From: Microbotryum violaceum
Lineage: Eukaryota
Direction of reading: 5' to 3'
DNA: 64,000 nt
Assembly (NCBI GenBank): GCA_001244265.2
Contig: CDLV01000011.1
Span: 682,001 to 746,000 of the forward strand
The notes under the pieces are model-generated. The model was not told the DNA's origin and made no database searches. It saw nothing but the letters and a program-made list of their open reading frames with translations. Shown here piece after piece: positions 38,505 to 53,399 of this stretch; position 1 is the stretch's first letter, and each line of letters opens with the position of its first letter. A program made the translations under genes and the position numbers.

Positions 38505-40188
38505 TCAGAGATGGGCAGTTAACTTTGCCGGCGGGAGTCCTTCGTAAGCGATATTATACTGTGAGCTCAATAATATGGTTCAAGCAAAGTGAGTTTGACT
38601 CCCCCGAAGGCTTGGGAGGTGTAGTTCCTCATCGGAACTCACCACAGCGTGGAAGAGAGGGTAGCTGTCAATTCTCCCTCGCGCCTTGAGAAATTCTGTG
38701 AAGAATAATTCTGCACTCGTTAGCTCGACTAGGTAAGATTGTGCCACTGCAGGTATTCACCGTGGACTTCTTTCGCTGTCTGAACGCCTTGAAGCCACTG
38801 CAGGTATTCACCGTGGACTTCTTTCGCTGTCTGAACGCCTTGAAGCTTTTGTCCATTCAGCATCTCTCGTTCCAGTACATCGAAAGACTGTAACCCCCAA
38901 AGGTAAGAGCCAGTCCTGCCTCAGTCCCAATCAGGCCTCTGATTGCCCGAGCGCCCGGAAAATGAAACATGCTCACCTTGCCAGTCTTGACGAACGCTTC
39001 TCCGCACTTGCGGTTCCTCCCACCAAGACACGACGTGATCAAGTCGGCTATCCCAGCTGAAGAATAAACGAAGGTCTCTGGTCGGGCGGTATCGAAGAAT
39101 TCGAGAGCGAATTTTCGCATTTCGAGAAGTCCGATCCTGCACCGAAACCGGGGTGTCAGTCAACATAATTCCTCTAATCGGGACATGATGAACACACCTC
39201 ATGATAGCTGCCTTGGCATTGTTGCCCCATCCCAACCCATCACAAGCCCCCGCAGCGATAGCGACGATGTTCTTGAGCGCTCCGGCCAACGAGACGCCAA
39301 CGACGTCATCGGTGATTTGGACGTGGAACGTCGGTGTGTGGAACGCCTCGTACCACCTTTGGCCCTCTTGTTGGTCCTTGCACGCGATGGTCGTTTCTCC
39401 GAAGGCATCCCTCGCAACCTCGTCGGCGATGTTGGCACCCGAAAGGGCTCCACACGGGATCCCGAGCTGCTCCTCAATCACCTGAGCGAAGATGGAGATA
39501 TGCTCGGCCGAGACCTCAACGCCCTTAACGAGCGACAATGCTCGACAGTTGGGGTCGATTTTGCCTCTGAGTTGCTTGCAAACACCGGGGACAAAGGCAT
39601 GAGGGGTGACAAAGACGAGCGCGTTGGCACCTTGCACCGAGCGGACGAGGTCGGCTTCGGCGACGACGCAGTGCGGGATCTTGATACCGGGCAGGTACTT
39701 GACGTTCTCGTGTGATTCATTGAATTGTTGTACCAGTGATCGACCCTTGAACTGGATTGGGAAGTGTCGGAGCAGGATCAGTTACGATGGAACAGGCAGC
39801 TCAGCCTCACACAGCCAACGTGAAAGCTCTCCAGTGGTCTCGAAGATGCGGTTGGGACCTGGGATGGGAGTGATTTGGGGCACGGGGGCGGGAGGGTTCC
39901 ATCCTCCTAAGTGCAGAGATGAACTTGCCTGCTCCTCAAAGACCCACATCTTGACCTCGGGATCAAACAGTTGGGGCTTGGCCTGTACGTTGATGCCGAT
40001 CAGCCTCGCAATCGCGCTGCCCCAATTGCCCGAACCTGTTCGAGTGGGGAGATCGCAAAACCGATCAGCCGCGCTCAGGAGACCCGGTAAAAAAAGCCCT
40101 CCTGAGGCCTCGAGAACTGGGACTGACCGATGATGGCGATCTTCCATTTTCCACCTGGGGGTGCGGGTGAGGTCAAAGGGAAGGCCAT
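38505..40188 (-). CDS. GPD1: NAD-dependent glycerol-3-phosphate dehydrogenase (multi-exon)
   Basis: [71 protein letters not shown]. One GC-AG intron, with the donor near 39928. Confidence 0.96.
38743..38846. repeat. Perfect 51-bp tandem duplication across a GPD exon/intron junction
   Basis: gccactgcaggtattcaccgtggacttctttcgctgtctgaacgccttgaa occurs at 38743 and at 38794. Confidence 0.97.
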
Positions 40189-41967
40189 GCTCGCTTGGGA
40201 GGAGTAGGAGCGAGTCGATAGCGGAGAAAGTTGGGTCAGGGTGCACTGCAGAGTGATCGGGAGGGTGCGGCGGATAGTGCTCCTGCTAATGCTGCTACTG
40301 TGGATAGAGGCGGCACAGACGGAGAACGCAGATCTCGAGGAGATGCAAGAAGCCACGATGGGCTGTGCGTGACGTAGGTGAAGAGCGTTCGACGATGGGT
40401 CAAGAGGGAGAGGATGGCGAGGTGCGCCCGAGTTCGCCGTGTGCTCCCACATTCACAGCTCCGAAAATTGCCGGGATGCATGCCGGGTTCGGCTACAGCA
40501 GTCCTCACATGTTGGGTAGGTAGTGTGTATGGCTGGACCAGGTTATCCTGGATCAAATCCCGCGATTGTTCTATATTGATCAACCTTGGCTTGTTGGAGA
40601 TGATGAAACTTCTCCTCGGAAGCCGCCAAGAAACCGATGGCCGAGAGGAGGTCCAAGCGTCGACAACGTCTCGACATCCAGGGCCGCTGCATTATGTCGG
40701 CGTACCCGTCTTGGAAAAAGACTCAGGTTGGTGAGAAAGAAAAAGAAAGGGAAATGAAAAGGGTAAAGGCTGTTCTCGACCTCCATCCTTCTCAGCATAT
40801 CCCCATCTCCTGCAAGTCAAAGTTTTCCCTGCCTCATCTTCAAGGTCGAGCCTCCGCGGATAGAAAGCGCGTTCCGACGCGCTAGGCCGCTTTGTTCTAG
40901 CACAAGACTGGGGCTGAGCAATATCTTCACGCAGATGTGGCTTGTAGCTAATAATGACGTGGACCCGCGGATTGCAAACGAAAAGAGCTCACTCCGCTCT
41001 CGCAGCTCCGGTGACGCTTTCCGCGCTACGGATAGCTGATGCTGTGGCGCCGCGGAGGGGGCGACTTGGTATTGGGTTTCGGATCGGCTGTCGGAACTCT
41101 GCACCGGCGCGGCGGCGTCTCAAATCCGTCGTCCGTTCGAGGCAAGTTGATATGAGAAGCGCTTGACATCAAATACTACAATTAGCCAGCTATTTGGTGT
41201 CAAAGTGAATAAACGGGAAAACTTTGCTGACAGCCAACCTTGGATCTGCGAACAAATTCGGGCTGAAGAGCGCAACTTCGTGTACAACTGTACAACGTGC
41301 GAGCATGCTTTCGTCAGCCGTATGCACCCGTAGGCTCACTCACGTCGTTCGTTTGAAGTGTAATCTTGACTGCCCCATATGCTACAAAACCAGGGTGGAC
41401 AAGGTCTCTCATCCTACGCTGTTGCCTCTTCAAGTTGCGGATCCGTCGTCTGACTCCGAGAAGTCACTGCAGTGCACAAGGTTGAGCCAGGTCTCCTCGA
41501 GTGTTGCGCAGGGGGTTAGGTGTACTGAGGAGCTTGTCGAGTGGCTGGTCCTAAGAGTACGACTCTGAGATCGCTTGAGCTTGTATGGAGTGAAGGAGGA
41601 CGTCGGGTTTTGGACGTCTGAGACCGATGACGTCAACCCCCGGCTTGCGGCTTCAGTCACATCCGGCGAACTGGACGATTTAAGTTGCTCCCACTTCTGA
41701 CTGTACATCGAGCGACGTATCCCTAAATCACATTGCGGGTTTCCCAAAATGTCCAAAAATATTGCAGATTTTTATGCCCATATTGACAGCTCGAGAGTGC
41801 CATGAACTCTAGGTAGCTATCCGAAATTCTCGATTCAAGCCCGCCCACAAACGCCATGAGCCGTCTGAACGTCTGACGACCTGCAGCGCGGCCGCGCACG
41901 AACCCGCCCGCGTTCCGGACAGCTTGGTCCCGCAGACGGGAGATCGGAAGCCTAAACTTTTTTCGGG

Positions 41968-42110
41968 CAGATCGGCAGGTCCGTTAATCCGACCAAATGA
42001 GCTCCCCCGCGCGGGCGAGTTAAGGCAGCTTTTTTGTTTTTTGGCCCGGTTGGAGGTTGGTACAGGTCGGGTGCACCAATGCCCTCCCCTCCCCATCCCA
42101 CCCCGGCGCA
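41968..42110 (+). repeat. Left terminal inverted repeat of the KDZ element
   Basis: Collinear with the reverse complement of 50935-51078. Shared blocks are ccccgcgcg-ggcgagtt-agg-agcttttt, tttggccc, gttggt and ggtgcacca-tgccct-cc. Confidence 0.85.
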
Positions 42111-43118
42111 GTGCACCTCATAAGTAATAAGGGGCCACTAGTTCGTGTAAGACTCACCATCATCACGAATAACACTTTCCGAAGACTCGTAAGTTCGAAT
42201 TATGTCATAAATGTCATACAGCTTGTCGTACTCAGTCCATCCATTCAGTTCGTGTAGTTCCGTATACCATCAACTGATATGTGTACAACAGATCCTGTGT
42301 AGACCTTTTCTCATATTCGTTAATTTGGATACGACGGAGGGAGTACACACCGCGTCTATTGGGCCCGAGGGAGAGATCGGTCCCGGTCCCCGGAATCCTG
42401 GATCGGTCCCCGGCAGACAAACGCTTATTCTGAACGGTGTGCACTGTGTATAGAGAATGGATATCTAGTGAATCCCCTTCGGACGGTCGACATGGATCCA
42501 GCGCCAATCAGTCCTGCATCAATTCCTAGAGAGTAATTGAAGAGGCAAAATTGAGGCGGGGCTGTGCGGGCCGCACGCGGAGCTCAGATTGGCGAGCGCT
42601 CTGCGTTAACACTTTGACCTCTGCACACTCACGTCAACGCGACAACGCGCATTCTTGACCCACGCCACGCCCCGCATCTCAATACGTTGAAACCTCCCCG
42701 CGCCTGTTGAACAAACATCGATGCTATTGCCGTCTGGAGGTATGTGGACGCGTTTCCCCGCCTCACATCTCCCTCCTCATGGGCCTAATTGTGTTGCTCC
42801 ACCATGACGCGACCGTCAGACATACGCGTGGGATCTAGGGAAGGTTCTCCAGCAGAGTCTATTTCCTTTGGCGCTCATCCGAGTGAGTGCTCTTGTCTGG
42901 TGTGCCAACTGAGATCCCTTGTAGCAGGGCTGAGAGCAGAGTGCCAGTCATCAACCTCATCCTTCTATCTACTCAATCCTGACGGACAGCTGAAGAATTC
43001 TCAGTTCTCTCACACCTCTGGCAGGTCGGAGGGACGATCAAAGCCGTCGAGCCTCCTCACAAGCCAGTACAATTCTGGATGAACCGTCTCGACGCCCGAC
43101 TCGGAAGAAAAGCGGCGC

Positions 43119-44849
43119 ATGCCCGTGCCCCAAACCCCTTCGTCCGACTCCGACTCTGACGAGCCCAATTTGGGCGATTCCAATCAATCCTCGGCTGACG
43201 ACAGTGACAGTGAAAGTGACAGTCACAGTCACAGTGAGAGTGAGTTTGAAGATGTCGCGATCGACCATCGAAGAGCTATCAGGCTCTGGACGGCCATACA
43301 TGGCTCGCATCGGAACGCGACCGGTCGTACGAGTCAAAGAAAGTGGACCTCGCTGAAGCGCTGGGCCGCTCGAAGATATTACTCGGAGCTCAAGATGGCC
43401 GCGAGACTCGGCATATCCCATGCAAGGCTCGTTCAGGCCGTCAAAAAATTCAACAGGCTCGCTTCGAAGGGCAATGCGTGGTCTAGATTTCTCTCGGACC
43501 CTGTAATCAAGGTTTTACACCAGCGAGCAAGCAAGGGTGAGTCGGTCCTCCGGGCGCTTCCGGTCATGCCCACTCCACTCTCCTACGCTCTCGCTTATGC
43601 TTACCGCTGCGTCCGCAATGTCTGTTCTTACATACCCTGGGTGTGTCAAACGTGCTCAGAATTGGATCAGTCGAAAGCGCAATCCATCACCAAACTTGCC
43701 GCTCAACTCTGGAACTTCCTGAGAGACCAGGGGGACCTCGGATCTGCCCAAATTGGCGAGGACGATGAAGAGCTTGTTCGCGCGGCTTTTGCAGTGGCAG
43801 AGGCGGGAAATAATACGACTTTCACTTCGGTCGTACCACCCACCATCATCACACGGTCGCCATCCGACATTCCTTCCCCAACTCGGATGGAGCAATGCAA
43901 AAAGTACATTGCAGAATTGCAAGACCTGGCGCAACGCATGTCCAAGCTGTACGGAGTGGAAACCCTGGCCTGTATTGTCCCTCGTTATCAAGACGACGTG
44001 TCGCCAGCGACGAAGGCGACCGTGCATTCGATAGGTGGGCTCAGATTTGCGGCTCACTGCAACGACTTCAAGGATCCATCCGGCAATTCCTTGTTGTCTA
44101 ATTTTGCTTCCAAGATGAGCTGGGATGAGACACTCAAGGCCAATGAAGCGGCAGATCTGAAAGAGGGTGAGCCTTTCATCGCAAGTTATACGCGCATGAG
44201 ACCAAGTTACCGTTACCAATTATTTGACATATGTTTTCGTCTCATCTATCAGCAAAAACCCGCTCGATGGACAGTGCTACTCGTGGCGTTCTTGGCAAAT
44301 GGCACGGCACTCTGTTCCGCGCCCAACTCAGTAAGTAGTCTGCATCTGATCGGGCTCGACTCCGTGCTAATCATTTCCGTCTTTACAGACTCTGCTCTCG
44401 AGACTATACATCGCCGTTCCGACACGGGATCATCGACAGGCGCTTTCACACCTCAGAAGAAGATGATATGGTCTACCCAGGGCTTGAAGGCACTGGGTGT
44501 CAAATTGCGGATCAAGCCCGGAACGAAAATTAGATACGAAATGGCTCTGCATCATAGTGCAGAGACATCGCCCAAGCAAACCGTTGCTCAGCTCAAGGCT
44601 ATCATTGACGACCTCCGTCACGGCCACCTCGCTATCGTACCCTCGGTGGACCCGAACGACAACACGGAGGCAGAGGCAAGCGACGATGACTCGAATGGCG
44701 GAGAAGGACCCCTGAGCCCAAGATTTGGTGGAGCCGGGACGAAGGCGGAGAGGTACGCGGCGGAGAGGTACGCGGCGGAGAAAAAAGCGGAGAAGAAGAT
44801 AGAGAAAGAAATACCGAGGGGGTGGCGGAGGAGACCGGAGGATGAATGA
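43119..44849 (+). CDS. Transposon cargo/accessory protein, possibly with an HMG-box-like region
   Basis: 576-codon stop-free ORF, probably including in-frame introns, located inside the TIRs. KGNAWSRFLSD...ITKLAAQLWNFL resembles HMG-box helices. The 5' end is uncertain. Confidence 0.6.
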   Translation: MPVPQTPSSDSDSDEPNLGDSNQSSADDSDSESDSHSHSESEFEDVAIDHRRAIRLWTAIHGSHRNATGRTSQRKWTSLKRWAARRYYSELKMAARLGISHARLVQAVKKFNRLASKGNAWSRFLSDPVIKVLHQRASKGESVLRALPVMPTPLSYALAYAYRCVRNVCSYIPWVCQTCSELDQSKAQSITKLAAQLWNFLRDQGDLGSAQIGEDDEELVRAAFAVAEAGNNTTFTSVVPPTIITRSPSDIPSPTRMEQCKKYIAELQDLAQRMSKLYGVETLACIVPRYQDDVSPATKATVHSIGGLRFAAHCNDFKDPSGNSLLSNFASKMSWDETLKANEAADLKEGEPFIASYTRMRPSYRYQLFDICFRLIYQQKPARWTVLLVAFLANGTALCSAPNSVSSLHLIGLDSVLIISVFTDSALETIHRRSDTGSSTGAFTPQKKMIWSTQGLKALGVKLRIKPGTKIRYEMALHHSAETSPKQTVAQLKAIIDDLRHGHLAIVPSVDPNDNTEAEASDDDSNGGEGPLSPRFGGAGTKAERYAAERYAAEKKAEKKIEKEIPRGWRRRPEDE

Positions 44850-45807
44850 AGCAAAACATCGTTGATGGATTGAGACCGTTCTTGTGTCTTTCTTTGGGCA
44901 TATTATGCTCTGAATCGGCTGCAAGATAACCGATATTTGTTATGTCTCTGTGGTTTGTGACGCGTCTTTCAGTGTAGATCCTTGAGTTTAGTTTCAGATG
45001 ATTGTCATGCACGCATACAGCGTCTCAGCTGCCATCTTGATTGTGGCAATTAATCTTAACAGGATATGATCAAAATGCTCATTCTGTCAGGCTCAGCCAA
45101 GATCACTGGGCATACTCGACCCCCCTCCCAGCGCCCGGGGGCCCCTGTGTGCTCCGGGCGCCGGCATCCCGTTCATTTACGGACCCCTTCCAGAGATTAC
45201 GCTGGAGTCTTCCTTCACATCCAATCGTTCCGCCCTTTGTCCTACAGGGAATCGGGGCGCACCGCATGGGTCGCAGCACAACGGTGTGGCGCTCGCATCC
45301 AGGCAAGGCGACATCTCTGCGCATCTATTTACCTTTGGGTCAACGAAATTAGAATGGCTCTCGGGCCGACGCATCTCCTCTTTCTCCTTCTTCTTCTTCT
45401 GAAGTTGTGATGTACAACCAAATGGCCATACATCTTTTCCAACTTCAACCTCATCGCCGTTTCTTGCGCCTCTCGTTTCAAACACACTTTGGACCCGATC
45501 CCTCCTAATCATTCCTCATATCCTTGTATCCATGCTTCGTCCGAAGGCGCCGTACCATTGACCGTGTCTCGTTGCATAAGTCTGTTTGACCTTTTGGCCT
45601 ACCATTGTCTTCTTCCCTTAGATACAATCTGACTTCACCTTCAGGTCGGACCGGTTGCCACTGCATAACCCTTAACTGCCTGCGCGCCGCAAAATCGGAC
45701 GGTGGATGACTGTGAGGTCATTCGGTGGGACTGCAATACAGGGGTCAGACGACAGCTCGACCTCTCCTTCCATGTCCCATCCTGAATTCACCCATCGTCG
45801 TAACTAT

Positions 45808-45888
45808 AAGACCCAGCTGAAGACCCCAACTGAAGACCCAGCTGAAGACCCCAACTGAAGACCCAGCTGAAGACCCCAACTGAAGACC
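45808..45888. repeat. 25-bp minisatellite (AAGACCCAGCTGAAGACCCCAACTG) x~3 inside the KDZ element
   Basis: Read directly from the sequence. Confidence 0.92.
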
Positions 45889-47188
45889 AAGAAGATGACC
45901 ATCACAATGATGACAAGACGGTATGTCCCGTCGAAAAGAACTTTGAAAACACCCTCCCAGTTTGGGTACTTTCAGTCTGACTCCAACATGACGTGTTGTC
46001 CACCTTGGGCTTGAACTTTGATTGGTGTCACAAAAGACTATATGACCTGCCATTGCCGAAAACCACGGCGGGGCAGTCGGTCGGTCGATATTAGAAGGAG
46101 GCCCAGGCCGCAACAGCGTGCAGAACTCTCGAGCCGCCTAATGCGATGAGAAAACGTAGAGCAACGACAGAGAAAGGGGTGTATCAAGGTGAGTCTGACT
46201 CGCTCGTGGCTTCGTTCAGTCATACACAGCGCATTACTTTGGGCATGGGTGACTATGACTTGCTGCAGTTCGACTGTTGAAACGCAAGCGCCCGTGACGA
46301 CGTACTTCGCGTCGAGATTACAGTGAGTGTGTGAACTGCGCAGGAAGGAATTGTGACAAAGCAGTACGCTGGCTCTTAGCGACTTAGCAAAGAGTTCATT
46401 AACGTGCCACCAATAGCCACTCAAGGGATTCGTAACCCTCTCTCCCTATTATCGGTCCTCACCTCCCAACGAAAATCCCTCACCTTACCAGATGGGACGC
46501 TTCTCCAGCCCCCTGCTTTAGGGCCCAAAGGGATAATTCATATTATCATACCGAAAAAGATTGTTATGTTAGGGGTGATCAACTTCTGTTCCTCGCGTCT
46601 GAAAAGTCATCAACCAAGTGCCGAGGCAAACACTCAACGGACCTGGTCGAGTGTGAGGCTCGGAGTGGCCGTGGCAACACAACAGAAGACCTGTGTACGA
46701 CGTTGGGACTGTGAGCCGGATCAGGACTTCGTTCAAGTATACATCAAAATGTAGTCGGCAGTGTTGGAATATAATAAGTACTTTTGCAATCCCTGCTTGG
46801 GAAGTGTAACCCAACGCACGACACGGACTGCGCATGTGACTGACTGGCAGGGAGCGCGGTCTACATGTTGGAGATCTCAGCGCAGTCAGCGCAGCAAAGA
46901 TGCAATGGACGCTTGTGTTCACTCCCTCAGTGTAGCGCGCTCTTCCTCTAAATCTTACCGGTCGTGTTGGGCTCCAGCTGCCAGCTTTACTCGAGCGACA
47001 TTAGGCGAGCCACCGCAAGATCGAGCGATTTAGCGATGCTGGGTCTTGGATGTCTGATCGCTCTTGTTGCGCTTCCTGGCAAAGCGTCGTATAACGTGTA
47101 GAACTATTATCGAAATGAACGCATCATTGATCTCTTTACTATTGCAAGTAGCAACTGGGCGAAAGACTGCAACTATATATGATCAATA

Positions 47189-50100
47189 TCAAATCCCCCA
47201 AAAAATATCGCCATCGTCTTCGTCAAAATTCTCGATGATCTCGTCACTGAAGGCGCCGTAATCGATAGTGTCGACGGAATGATGACTCAGATCATCGCTC
47301 GAATGATCACTGATGTCAAGAAGGGTGTCATGATCCGTGGTGATGTCGTCCGACTCTCCGACCATCCCATCATTGATGCAGTCTGGCCATGTGTGAGCCG
47401 GCAAGCCACCCGTTGTGGTTCGTTGAAGAACATCAGCGTCGTCGGTGCACCACATTCGAAGCTCGACCCACTCCTCCATTTGCGGTTCGCTGGTTTGCCG
47501 GGTGCATTCCCACAGGTGATCTAGGCCGCCCTTCGAAAACCATTGGCGCGCAATATTTCTAAGACGCTCTTCTTCTTGCTCGAGCATCATCATCGCAGAG
47601 TAATCCTGCTCATCTCGTTGGAGTAATTGCTGGCGAACTTGCTGACACCTCTTGCGACGGCTTATCAGCCACCGTCCAATGCGACGCACTTCCCATCCAA
47701 GTCGTTTGATTTCTTGCTGGCATCTTGCGCGAGACAATACTGCTGGAATGCCGACACGAACATCATCATCGTAGGCCCACGGCTCAGTGGGATGACTATA
47801 TAATCCGTTGTTCCAGAGCGGCGCCAAGATGTCGAGTTTGAGCAGTTCGTTGAGATCCTCTGGGGCTGATGGCGGTACCCTTCGGGTTCTCAAGATCGAA
47901 TGGGAGTCCTGAGAATTGGCGAGGATGGCAGCATACTTTTTCACCTCGTCGTTATACATCGCCACTGCCTTCATGAGTCTTGGACGCAAAGAATTAAGAT
48001 TCTTGACCAGGAGACCAGCCGCTTTCGTACCTATGAGCAGGCATTGCTACACATCAGCGTTTCTTCTGCCGGCGCAGAAGACTCGTACCATGGATTTCCT
48101 ACCGAGGGCTTTACCGCCTAGGCGCGGGAGCCGCAGCCTCTCAGCTCCCTGTCGATATTGTACAACCAAGTCCCACAGCGAGCGAGATGCGACCATCAAC
48201 GTGCAGGCTGGTTCATAGTCTGTGCCAATCAAAGGTATTGAAATATTTAAGCGAGGACAACGGGGATCACACCGAAGGGTCAGAATGGAAGAAGGAAGTG
48301 ACGTACCAGGGTCCAGGACACTGATGTTCATGTCCGACGTGCGTAAGGAGTTCAGTCGATCATCAAGAACCTGCCGTTGTTTGACCAGCTGTTGAAGTTT
48401 AGTCGACTGTTCTATAAGCTTGTTCGTATCTATGGTGTTCACGCAGGCTAGGTCTTCCCTGTGTCAATCGAAAAATGAATACCGAAGCTAGGTTACCGGT
48501 TCGTGTCTCACTCCCAAACGACGACGATAGCTCAGACCCACCGGCATGCTGCGATGTCTTTGTTAACCAGCTCAAGCTTGAACATGACGTTGCGCATCTC
48601 GGCTACCTCTTTGCGCTGCTCTTTCAGAGGGATCTGCTTGGACGCTGCACGTTGCGCGTGCCATTGTTCAAGGAGGGTAGCGACCGTCCATTCGGAGCGA
48701 TTAACGACCTCAGCAATGACTCTGTCGGCTTCGGCCTTGAGCTTGATTGCGTTTTTGAGTCGAGAATTAAGTACGTTTGTAGCGTCACTGGTACGCGCAG
48801 GCCCCGTAGTACAATCCGTTTCTCCGACTTCAACTTCTTCGAAAATCCATTTCAACAGCGACACGGGATATACTAACCTGCGGCAGACCAAATTCGCTTA
48901 GTAGTGTCCTTGCCTGGAGTCACAGATGGCCGGTCCACACATACTTTTCACCTGATTGATGAAGGTTGCAAAGTCGCAGGCAATGATCATGACGGCACAC
49001 TGCAGCAACGAGGCCTGTGTCGGCCACTACATTTGACGAAGCGGAGGTCACACCACCATCTGCGGCCTTCCAGTTGGCTGTGCATTCGTCCTGTATGATA
49101 GAATAGCCCGTTTAGCAATCACAGAGAGTCGGGTCAACGCATTATTGGGTTCGGGTGACCCGACATCAGCAGCACCAAGGTACCTTCTCGCCCGCTTCAG
49201 TCGATCCGTCGATCAAAGCTTGCTCGTTTCGAATCTTGTCTGGTGGCAGGAATAACGCTGGACGTGACTTGAGAGGATCAGCAGTTGCCCGCGCGAATCG
49301 TCGATGCTGAAAATTGCCGTCGACAGCAATGATGACATCGAGGTCATTCTCGCTCTTGCCGGCTTCATCGATCCGAGGCCCAAAACATGCCGGACAAACG
49401 TCGGCCAGACGCTCGCGCGGGAGAGGCCGAGAATTTCGGCGGTCAAGGTAGCATAAATCGATATTCATCCATTGCGGCTTGAAGATGCTGACGCACGGTT
49501 GGACCCTGGGAAGCTTCCAATATTTTCTGTAAAAAACAGTGAATGTTTCCGGCCTGTCCCTGTGCAAGAGCCCACCTTGTTAAAAGGATCCTCTGAGGAT
49601 GATTCAGAGGACCAAAAGAGAATGAGCGCTTCGGACATGCCATAGATACCAAAAGGATCTACCCCCAGTAGGCGTCGAGATATTCGATCGTGCGAAAGAA
49701 GAATGCGGTGATGCCTTCTCTTTTTCGGATTGAAGATGACGACGTCGGGAGAAGACCGTGAGCTGCCAGGGTTTGGATCTCGGAATAGCGTGGGCAGTAT
49801 CGTAGTTCTCGCACGCCTGCTCATGGTTGGGGGATATAAAACCGGTCCAAGACGATAGCGTAAGGGTGATTGACAAAATACGTGCAACGTAAGCACTTAC
49901 CTGCAAAGAACAGGTCGACAACCCGGACCTTTCTGGTGACTCGGCGTTCATGACATGCGTCGCACCACCCCTCGTCGTCCGGGGAAGGGACAAACCCGCT
50001 CTGTCGGAGCACTTCTTTGGCCTTTTTCTTCATCAATAGGTACGCCTGGAGAAGGTCAGGTCGTTTTGACGCCATAGTCTTAGCTTCGGCCCTCGCAGTC

Positions 50101-50809
50101 CGGCGACGATTGCGCTGCTTCTTGGCGTTCCTCTCGATCCGCGATCGCTTAAGTGAAGAGGGCGCTTGGTCTTGAGAAGCACCGTCTGGGTGGAATGGCG
50201 AATGCTCCGGTCCAGATGAGTATCCACCGCCGAAATCGCGACCGAAGTCGTAGTCGGGCTCAAAGTCGGGCGCGCTGTTAGGCTTGAAGTTGTGCTCGAA
50301 GCCGCCGGTCTCGGTGTCTAGAGGCCACGCCGTTGCGCCATCGGCAATGTCAGTCCACGGCTCGGACGATGATTTGTGGAGGCCGGCAATGGATTTCTCC
50401 GAATGCTCCTTCCGACGACGCGTTGACCTCTGGACTGATGGTGATAGGGGAGGGCCCGGCTGACGTTTCGGACGCCTCTTCGTTGCAGAGCGGAAAATGC
50501 CGAAGTTGAAGCCGAACGTCTTGTCGAACAGCTCGCTATCCGGGGACAACGATGGCCCCCTTTTCCGTACTCGCCTGGTCCATAATCTCCTCCTCTTCTT
50601 ATTCTTCGTCTTCGCCTCCTCCTCCGTTCCGACCGACGTCGTGGCCCCATTCTCGCACGTGTCCTTGTTGCTGCTGGTCACCTTCTTCCTCCTCCTCACG
50701 GTCGTGCTCTTCTTGCGCTTGGTCTTGTCAGGCGTTTTCCCTTCTCTGTTCCGACTGGCGATGCTGAGCTAGGTTGTAGAGGTGGTGGTGTGTGTGGTAG
50801 GATGTCCAT
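47189..50809 (-). pseudogene. CxC1-KDZ transposase, frameshifted and with the catalytic core internally deleted
   Basis: WCDAC..KVRVVD (CxC1 start), LADVCPACFG, IIAVDGNFQHRR, CTANWKAAD..DTGLVAAVCRHD..N..SGEK, C-terminal LWNNGLYSHPTEPWAYD..GI..RCQQEIKRLGWE. The YDIxC, FHAYxH and DGEGxERxWS motifs were not found. Confidence 0.9.
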
Positions 50810-50934
50810 GCTTGAAGCAATGGGTGCGAGCCTGCAAGGCCTTGGTTGGAGGGAAGTGGGGGGAACTCGTGGTGCTGAGGCAGATGGACCATGAGCGGGG
50901 ATAAGTAGCAAGTGCCCGGATTAGTGACCACTTT

Positions 50935-51078
50935 TGCCTCCGGGGGCTGGGGGTTGGCAGGGCAATGGTGCACCTAGCCCGCACCAACGTTTTCCTGGGC
51001 CAAATCTTCAAAAAGCTCCCTAAACTCGCCGCGCGCGGGGTAGTATATTTGTTAGGCTTATTTTGACCCGCATAGGTG
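50935..51078 (-). repeat. Right terminal inverted repeat of the KDZ element
   Basis: Its reverse complement aligns with 41968-42110; it ends ...CATAGGTG immediately before the TSD. Confidence 0.85.
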
Positions 51079-51160
51079 TTTTCGGGCCCCCGTTGACTCG
51101 AACGACCCGCGAACGCTCTTCCTCATGCGCGCACACACACACTCCACCACTTCATTCAAG

Positions 51161-53399
<2,239 letters not shown>

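Follow-up and report, generated by a model that had tools for sequence, protein, structure and literature searches.

A 64,000-nucleotide stretch of Microbotryum violaceum DNA (contig CDLV01000011.1, positions 682,001 to 746,000; hereafter the window) carries a KDZ-family DNA transposon whose two ends are related inverted repeats that differ at many bases. The locus raises the question of whether this left/right difference reflects decay of one copy or is a property of the transposon family, and of what kind of KDZ element it is. The element is, in all probability, a Dileera-type KDZ cut-and-paste DNA transposon with an end asymmetry probably kept by selection, and the copy in the window is now disabled. 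For its family we found sharp common ends, insertion-specific 8-bp duplications, empty paralogous targets, a gene combining CxC1 and KDZ domains, and a family-confined second gene. The boundaries in the window are as follows.

41960..41967, + strand: left target-site duplication (TSD) TTTTCGGG, from the sequence read
41968..42119, + strand: left end, with terminal 14-mer CAGATCGGCAGGTC and an imperfect inverted repeat of ~150 bp
50930..51078, - strand: right end, upstream of the transposase, with terminal 14-mer CACCTATGCGGGTC and an imperfect inverted repeat of ~150 bp
51079..51086, + strand: right TSD TTTTCGGG, from the sequence read

The element spans 41968-51078 (9,111 bp), starting at 41968 with its left 14-mer and reading its right 14-mer inward from 51078. 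On neither strand of the window does the bracketing 8-mer occur anywhere but at these two junctions. Aligned over their outermost 140 bp, the two ends gave 99/140 matches (71%), with a score of 56 compared to -107 ± 14 (maximum -60) for 1,000 shuffles, well beyond what shuffled sequence produces. The long, diverged terminal inverted repeats (TIRs) proposed in the initial annotation are real by this measure. Among the close end matches listed from the genome, 21 of 23 left ends and 21 of 22 right ends begin exactly at the first query base, and their flanks differ apart from two left ends with a common flank. The perfect 8-bp TSD and delimited ends proposed earlier were confirmed by the 8-mer at both junctions and by the recurrence of these boundaries in other copies.

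Family copies and target-site duplications

The genome (33.2 Mb, 20 contigs) was searched at the DNA level, scoring the best 40 candidates only, so that copy counts are lower bounds. At least 23 close matches to the left end (82-100% identity) and at least 22 to the right end (90-100%) were found, together with a second class at ~70-83%. The family comprises at least ~22 close copies of 9-10 kb, which amount to roughly 200 kb of the genome. Left and right ends no more than 30 kb apart formed 20 pairings, with one left end counted twice. Nine pairings had perfect 8-bp TSDs (one with ends not facing each other), two had one mismatch, and four required an extra base at the right junction to match. 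TSDs with at most one mismatch occurred in 11/20 physical pairings and 7/821 other pairings, while the one-base-offset form occurred in 4/20 and 0/821, respectively. One of the seven matching non-neighbour pairings was perfect and lay 1.85 Mb apart on contig C2. Two further pairs belonged to a sister family, one with a perfect duplication and one with a single mismatch. The expectation that other copies would share these boundaries and carry an 8-bp TSD of their own was satisfied at the family level by the 11 pairings.

Empty paralogous sites were also recovered. For the copy L009/L045, both flanks are contiguous around a single CCCCGGTG in L089 and, apart from a 1-base gap, in L087. For L030/L053, the flank of L044 likewise contains the 8-mer once between the two flanking sequences. 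L088 was tried as another empty paralogue of L009/L045 and rejected, as it matches the left flank of L009 only. The copy-specific TSDs and the empty paralogues argue for past mobility of the family.

The right junction varied in four cases. L018/L039 on contig C7 carry a perfect 9-bp duplication and L008/L033 (C7) a 9-bp duplication with an internal mismatch. In a tree of 21 right ends, those of these two copies group as sisters (support 91/92, too low for the program's star mark). In L016/L031 (contig C16) and L019/L041 (C7), an additional G separates the right end from an 8-bp duplication, and these two copies do not cluster in the tree. No empty paralogue was available for the 9-bp case L018, whose flank is single-copy. 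The simplest, if tentative, reading of the four cases would be an occasional 9-nt stagger together with an occasional donor base carried along with the right end.

These data bear on whether the two ends in the window could be unrelated insertions or a recombined pair between which the 8-mer repeats by chance. Rearranged copies do exist in this genome, since L005/L035 have matching TSDs on ends that are not in facing orientation, and the TSD of L007 recurs at L043, 1.85 Mb away. However, three other copies align collinearly with the interior of the window copy (91-97% identity), and the 8-mer of the window copy is confined to the two junctions. Together with the TSD statistics, these observations leave chance pairing a negligible probability, and it was rejected for the window copy.

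Transposase, accessory gene and known KDZ elements

The interior of the element holds two convergent genes separated by a spacer.

43119..44849, + strand: ORF2, ~480 amino acids, with GT..AG introns; exons intact here, 3' frame uncertain in a G-rich repeat
44850..47188, no strand: spacer between the convergent stop codons, the most indel-prone part
47189..50809, - strand: multi-exon CxC1 + KDZ transposase gene, ~1,200 amino acids when whole, disabled here
48772..48773, - strand: site of a 531-bp deletion relative to 3/3 aligned copies
49451..49452, - strand: site of a 13-bp deletion, which puts the transposase out of frame

The KDZ identity proposed earlier was borne out by PF18758 in the window copy and by KDZ plus CxC1 in close relatives. 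PF18758 matches the window copy at profile positions 2-99 only (E 1e-16) because the 531 bp are missing, whereas it covers positions 2-215 in close relatives (E 5e-48 on P0025). CxC1 was detected on P0025 (E 1e-6, 28.8 bits vs a cut-off of 26.9) and fell below the cut-off on P0019 and on a single exon. CxC4 and SWIM were not found on the two full-length relatives P0019 and P0025, where Pfam at E 0.1 gave only KDZ, CxC1 and one spurious match. Protein matches at 53-99% identity all came from Microbotryum.

The 531-bp gap takes approximately residues 575-710 of P0019, with the motifs YDIAC, HAYAH and DGEGTERLW (KDZ profile ~115-215), which presumably hold two of the three catalytic acids. Contigs of read runs showed the same difference: that of X15 contained 531 additional letters, and those of X6, X11 and X13 had loose ends there. 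Relative to all three aligned full copies, the window copy lacks these 531 bp and also the 13 bp near 49452. The earlier description of a completely delimited element stood for the ends, but it had missed both internal deletions. The window copy is completely delimited, internally deleted and not autonomous, because 531 bp of its catalytic core are gone. Contigs of three or four runs contained one extra base at G/C runs (window 43108, 44735, 49418 and 49661), and some frameshifts in assembled copies may for this reason be sequencing or assembly errors.

ORF2 has 18 relatives, all in Microbotryum, and its matches at ~21 genome places coincide with family ends. The genome search revealed no copy in host DNA beyond the family, and by locus tag ORF2 lies beside transposase genes in two Microbotryum species. 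HMMER against 1.84 billion representatives returned five ORF2 matches, all close relatives. No Pfam family scored above its cut-off (HTH_50 matched weakly below it), and the best hit among PDB sequences had E 2.5. Structure models had a predicted local distance difference test (pLDDT) score of 41 for the full protein and 67 for a domain (from 3 sequences), mostly helical and of low confidence. Fold searches with these models peaked at Z 5.6 and 5.4, without a Foldseek match, and Atlas placed ORF2 with unnamed Basidiomycota clusters at 0.91-0.93, which is a lead only. Pfam scans of ORF2 and of the longer ORFs (10 proteins) gave no TET/JBP match. An HMG-box accessory protein is associated with KDZ elements. 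A likeness of ORF2 to the HMG box seen by eye found no support among Pfam, PDB-sequence or fold matches (model pLDDT 67).

The linkage of ORF2 to the family, its basic helical N-terminal region and the HTH_50 match below the cut-off tentatively suggest an accessory DNA-binding helper of the element. The chances are even that ORF2 is instead passive cargo or an anti-silencing protein with no part in transposition. KDZ elements of fungi harbour TET/JBP genes as well as unknown ORFs (PMC12730594; PMC11343200), and one sister-family copy read whole gave no ORF2 match, both of which suit a cargo role. Against this role, ORF2 has no match to TET/JBP or another Pfam family above cut-off and no host copy seen outside the family.

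The spacer contains a 25-bp tandem array (45808-45888) and has no Rfam match. In 3/4 pairs, one locus-tag number is missing between ORF2 and the transposase. A third gene in the spacer was considered and rejected, since no ORF is conserved by eye in all four copies.

The element shows the hallmarks of the KDZ superfamily, namely PF18758, an N-terminal CxC cluster, and defined ends with an 8-bp TSD. Its transposase carries CxC1, not CxC4 with SWIM, as in Cryptococcus KDZ1-3, which points to Dileera. This putative assignment rests on the CxC1 architecture and TSD length. The marks of Kyakuja (7-bp TSD, no TIRs), of Zisupton proper (CxC4 and SWIM) and of TET-carrying KDZ elements (a TET/JBP gene) were not found.

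Cryptococcus neoformans KDZ1 (10.9 kb, TIRs of 236-241 bp, 8-bp TSD, CxC1, Dileera clade) carries two unknown genes (PMC11343200). KDZ2 and KDZ3 measure 9.2 and 10 kb, with TIRs of 139 and 169 bp, respectively, and TSDs of 4-8 bp, and KDZ1-3 have been shown to be mobile (PMC11343200; 10.1101/2025.05.19.654958). The window element resembles them in its CxC1 + KDZ transposase, the 9-11 kb size, long TIRs, the 8-bp TSD (KDZ1) and extra ORFs in which no known domain is recognised. They differ in being mobile, whereas the window copy has lost its core. The available text of both papers does not mention imperfect TIRs, that of PMC11343200 does not mention asymmetry, and 9-bp TSDs were likewise not mentioned. 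Ends have also been mapped for the rust Dileera elements Zisupton-1_PGr, Dileera-1_PTrit and Dileera-2_MLP, with an 8-bp TSD for Zisupton-1_PGr (PMC12730594, Kojima 2025). These come from the same subphylum, share the 8-bp TSD (Zisupton-1_PGr), and two of them start with CACC like the right end of the window element. Unlike the window element, which has no TET/JBP match, they carry a TET/JBP gene and measure 10-20 kb. The earlier statement that fungal KDZ elements are known mostly from their proteins and not from mapped ends does not hold, as Cryptococcus KDZ1-3 and the rust elements were published with ends and TSDs.

Kyakuja of Laccaria has CA..TG ends, a 7-bp TSD and no TIRs (PMC12730594). 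It shares the CA..TG termini and the KDZ transposase with the window element, whose 8-bp TSD and 71% identical 140-bp inverted ends set it apart. Zisupton proper (in fish, and KDZx1 of Cryptococcus) is similar in its 8-bp TSD and multi-exon KDZ transposase (PMC12730594; PMC11343200; PMC9297572). KDZx1 carries CxC4 and SWIM domains, neither of which is on P0019 or P0025, and its TIRs were not detected (PMC11343200).

KDZ and Zisupton receive no mention in the main text, as available, of a genus-wide Microbotryum transposon survey (PMC10502011). In a literature search that covered few subscription papers and not Repbase, neither a KDZ family from Microbotryum nor any work on the asymmetry or recognition of KDZ ends came up. 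KDZ elements appear to be unannotated in Microbotryum, and the genes of this family are annotated as ordinary host genes. What this locus adds is modest: a left/right difference that is conserved, a revised list of candidate binding blocks, an accessory gene without a known family, and junction variants. This kind of element is already described in other fungi, and the view of what KDZ elements are is unchanged.

Left/right asymmetry and its possible causes

To compare ends, 150-bp sequences were aligned from this family (21 left, 21 right) and from the sister family (7 left, 6 right). Like ends are 91-94% identical within a family (93% for both left-left and right-right in this family), while unlike ends are 55-62% identical (62% in this family). 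Between families, left ends are 75% and right ends 71% identical, and the likeness of the left ends ceases at about base 152. The consensus terminal 14-mers are the same in both families, with left and right differing at 6 bases, and a few sister-family copies deviate from them by 1-2 bases. Nineteen alignment columns separate left from right in both families, five separate the families, and none split the third way.

The sister family is, from its sequence, distant and apparently non-autonomous. Its right ends, read over 1.7 kb, fuse N- and C-terminal transposase remnants in 7/7 cases, with the core gone. These remnants are 31-35% (~110-amino-acid N-terminal part) and 47-59% (C-terminal part) identical to P0019, and three sister copies with perfect TSDs measure 4.1-6.2 kb. 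A transposase in L085 was considered as the sister-family gene and rejected, because the gene is part of a different KDZ element, inserted ~103 bp into a sister right end.

Because the same two different 14-mers are kept in the sister family, the asymmetry is not decay of the window copy. The earlier proposal that it is native to the family is upheld by this comparison. The asymmetry is old and probably selected, which would reflect either a shared ancestral requirement or borrowing of this transposase by the sister family. On this basis we lean towards polar recognition of the ends by the transposase. Of the three conserved blocks proposed earlier as transposase-binding sites, TTTGGCCC remains a candidate, being present in all four end classes (20/21, 7/7, 20/21 and 5/6; 52/55 in total). 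GGCGAGTT occurs in 35/42 ends of this family and in 0/13 sister ends, which counts against it, and GGTGCACCA persists only as a looser palindrome, GGT(G/A)(C/T)ACCA. The ends of the two families provide a shortlist of candidate binding sites for KDZ transposases.

By analogy with known DDE transposons, the transposase would bind sites within ~150 bp of each end, pair one left with one right end and cut at CA. The ends would then be joined to the target with an 8-nt stagger, whose repair would make the duplication. Selection would keep the left/right differences, most likely because the two ends take different places in the transposase complex. The catalytic core of the window copy was probably lost after insertion, and the copy could move only with the transposase of another copy. 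An extension that we regard as improbable is that Dileera transposases need two unlike ends (14-mers fixed across distant families), with ORF2 as an end-binding partner and with less precise cutting of the right end, which would account for the 9-bp duplications seen in one lineage and for the G brought along in two copies. If this is true, Dileera would represent a polar-ended, two-component system in eukaryotes.

The same transposon could carry an asymmetry without function, if its ends drifted apart long ago, the transposase needs the shared blocks only, and each end was simply inherited. Each end descends from the same end of earlier copies, so left/right splits are expected. Kyakuja and KDZx1, with no TIRs or none detected, exist as well, and KDZ enzymes would therefore tolerate unlike ends. 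However, the two families agree at all 14 terminal consensus bases of each end, among them the six at which left and right are unlike, against a divergence of 25-30% over the remaining end sequence and of 40-70% in the transposase remnants. We consider functionless asymmetry rather unlikely. Cross-mobilisation comes close to an even prospect as the source of the terminal identity, with a non-autonomous sister family having kept the ends that the transposase of this family needs. The core-less remnants in all seven sister right ends and the 4.1-6.2 kb length of the sister copies with perfect TSDs fit this idea. On the other side, the best 40 candidates were scored in this genome only, and an autonomous sister copy may exist. 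Cross-mobilisation would still imply sequence-specific left and right ends, with GGCGAGTT dispensable.

Several observations weigh against a Dileera-type transposon with selected asymmetry and a helper gene. No TSD was found in 5/20 pairings. The split of 19 columns to 5 shows age, not function, because simple descent of each end predicts it too. None of five transposase genes reads through intact, as the four others also contain stops or frameshifts. In three copy pairs, pN/pS (nonsynonymous to synonymous ratio) was 0.65-0.79 for both genes, as expected for decaying copies, and strong selection on ORF2 was not shown. ORF2 as a DNA binder has no fold support beyond the sub-threshold HTH_50 match. 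Finally, no empty-site joint of 41967 to 51087 was found in contigs of read runs X6, X11, X13 and X15 (4/24 runs), in all four of which the left flank had zero depth.

Host flanks and other observations

The insertion lies between two host genes, both pointing away from it.

39782..40285, - strand: first exon region of a glycerol-3-phosphate dehydrogenase-like gene (weak match, PF01210 E 0.001, below the cut-off)
51879..52185, + strand: exons of a 3-deoxy-D-arabino-heptulosonate 7-phosphate (DAHP) synthase gene (PF00793 E 5e-10 and 9e-7)

The left flank (40800-41967) is single-copy in the assembly. Depth was nevertheless zero at 40800-41951 in 4/4 runs, possibly through a record filter. On the right, contigs of single-copy depth start inside the right end and continue into the flank in X6 (at 51049) and X13 (at 51050), which bear different species labels. 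X11 and X15 were uninformative on occupancy of this junction. The X6 and X13 contigs suggest that the insertion is common to strains and to a second species label. Such sharing is suggested and not proven, because the overlaps with the right end (30 and 29 letters, respectively) fall just short of the 31-letter bridging rule.

Flank genes were tallied by hand for 36 ends and the window, using the 8 longest frames per flank and dropping five weak or conflicting flanks and one retrotransposon match. In 12 of 15 flanks with a Pfam match (~E 1e-4 or better), the host gene points away from the insertion. This pattern, given as a raw count, hints at promoter-side insertion or at survival. CTC or GAG occurs in 10/18 duplication words, compared to a background of 0.24, the motif having been picked after the data were seen.

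The matching duplications 1.85 Mb apart belong to L007 (C2:354841) and L043 (C2:2207804), and the right half of L005/L035 (contig C3) is inverted together with its flank. Both cases are either rearrangements through family copies or assembly joins. KDZ ends also lie at or within other KDZ ends: two right ends stand tail to tail 9 bp apart (L043/L059, C2:2207804-2207814), a right end sits 10 bp into a left end (L082, C2:886076), and a third KDZ element sits ~103 bp within a sister right end. Common flanks occur within L020/L021, L029/L069, L057/L060/L074 and L092/L093, and these pairs and trios were therefore duplicated along with the surrounding DNA. The flanks of L027, L030, L046 and L053 match that of L044, so that several KDZ ends cluster around a single point (within ~60 bp) in members of one repeat family. 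This repeat, putatively Helitron-like by a motif, had no Pfam match. Genome-wide, 128 KDZ profile matches fall into several distinct exon patterns, and there are therefore further KDZ families beyond the two studied here.

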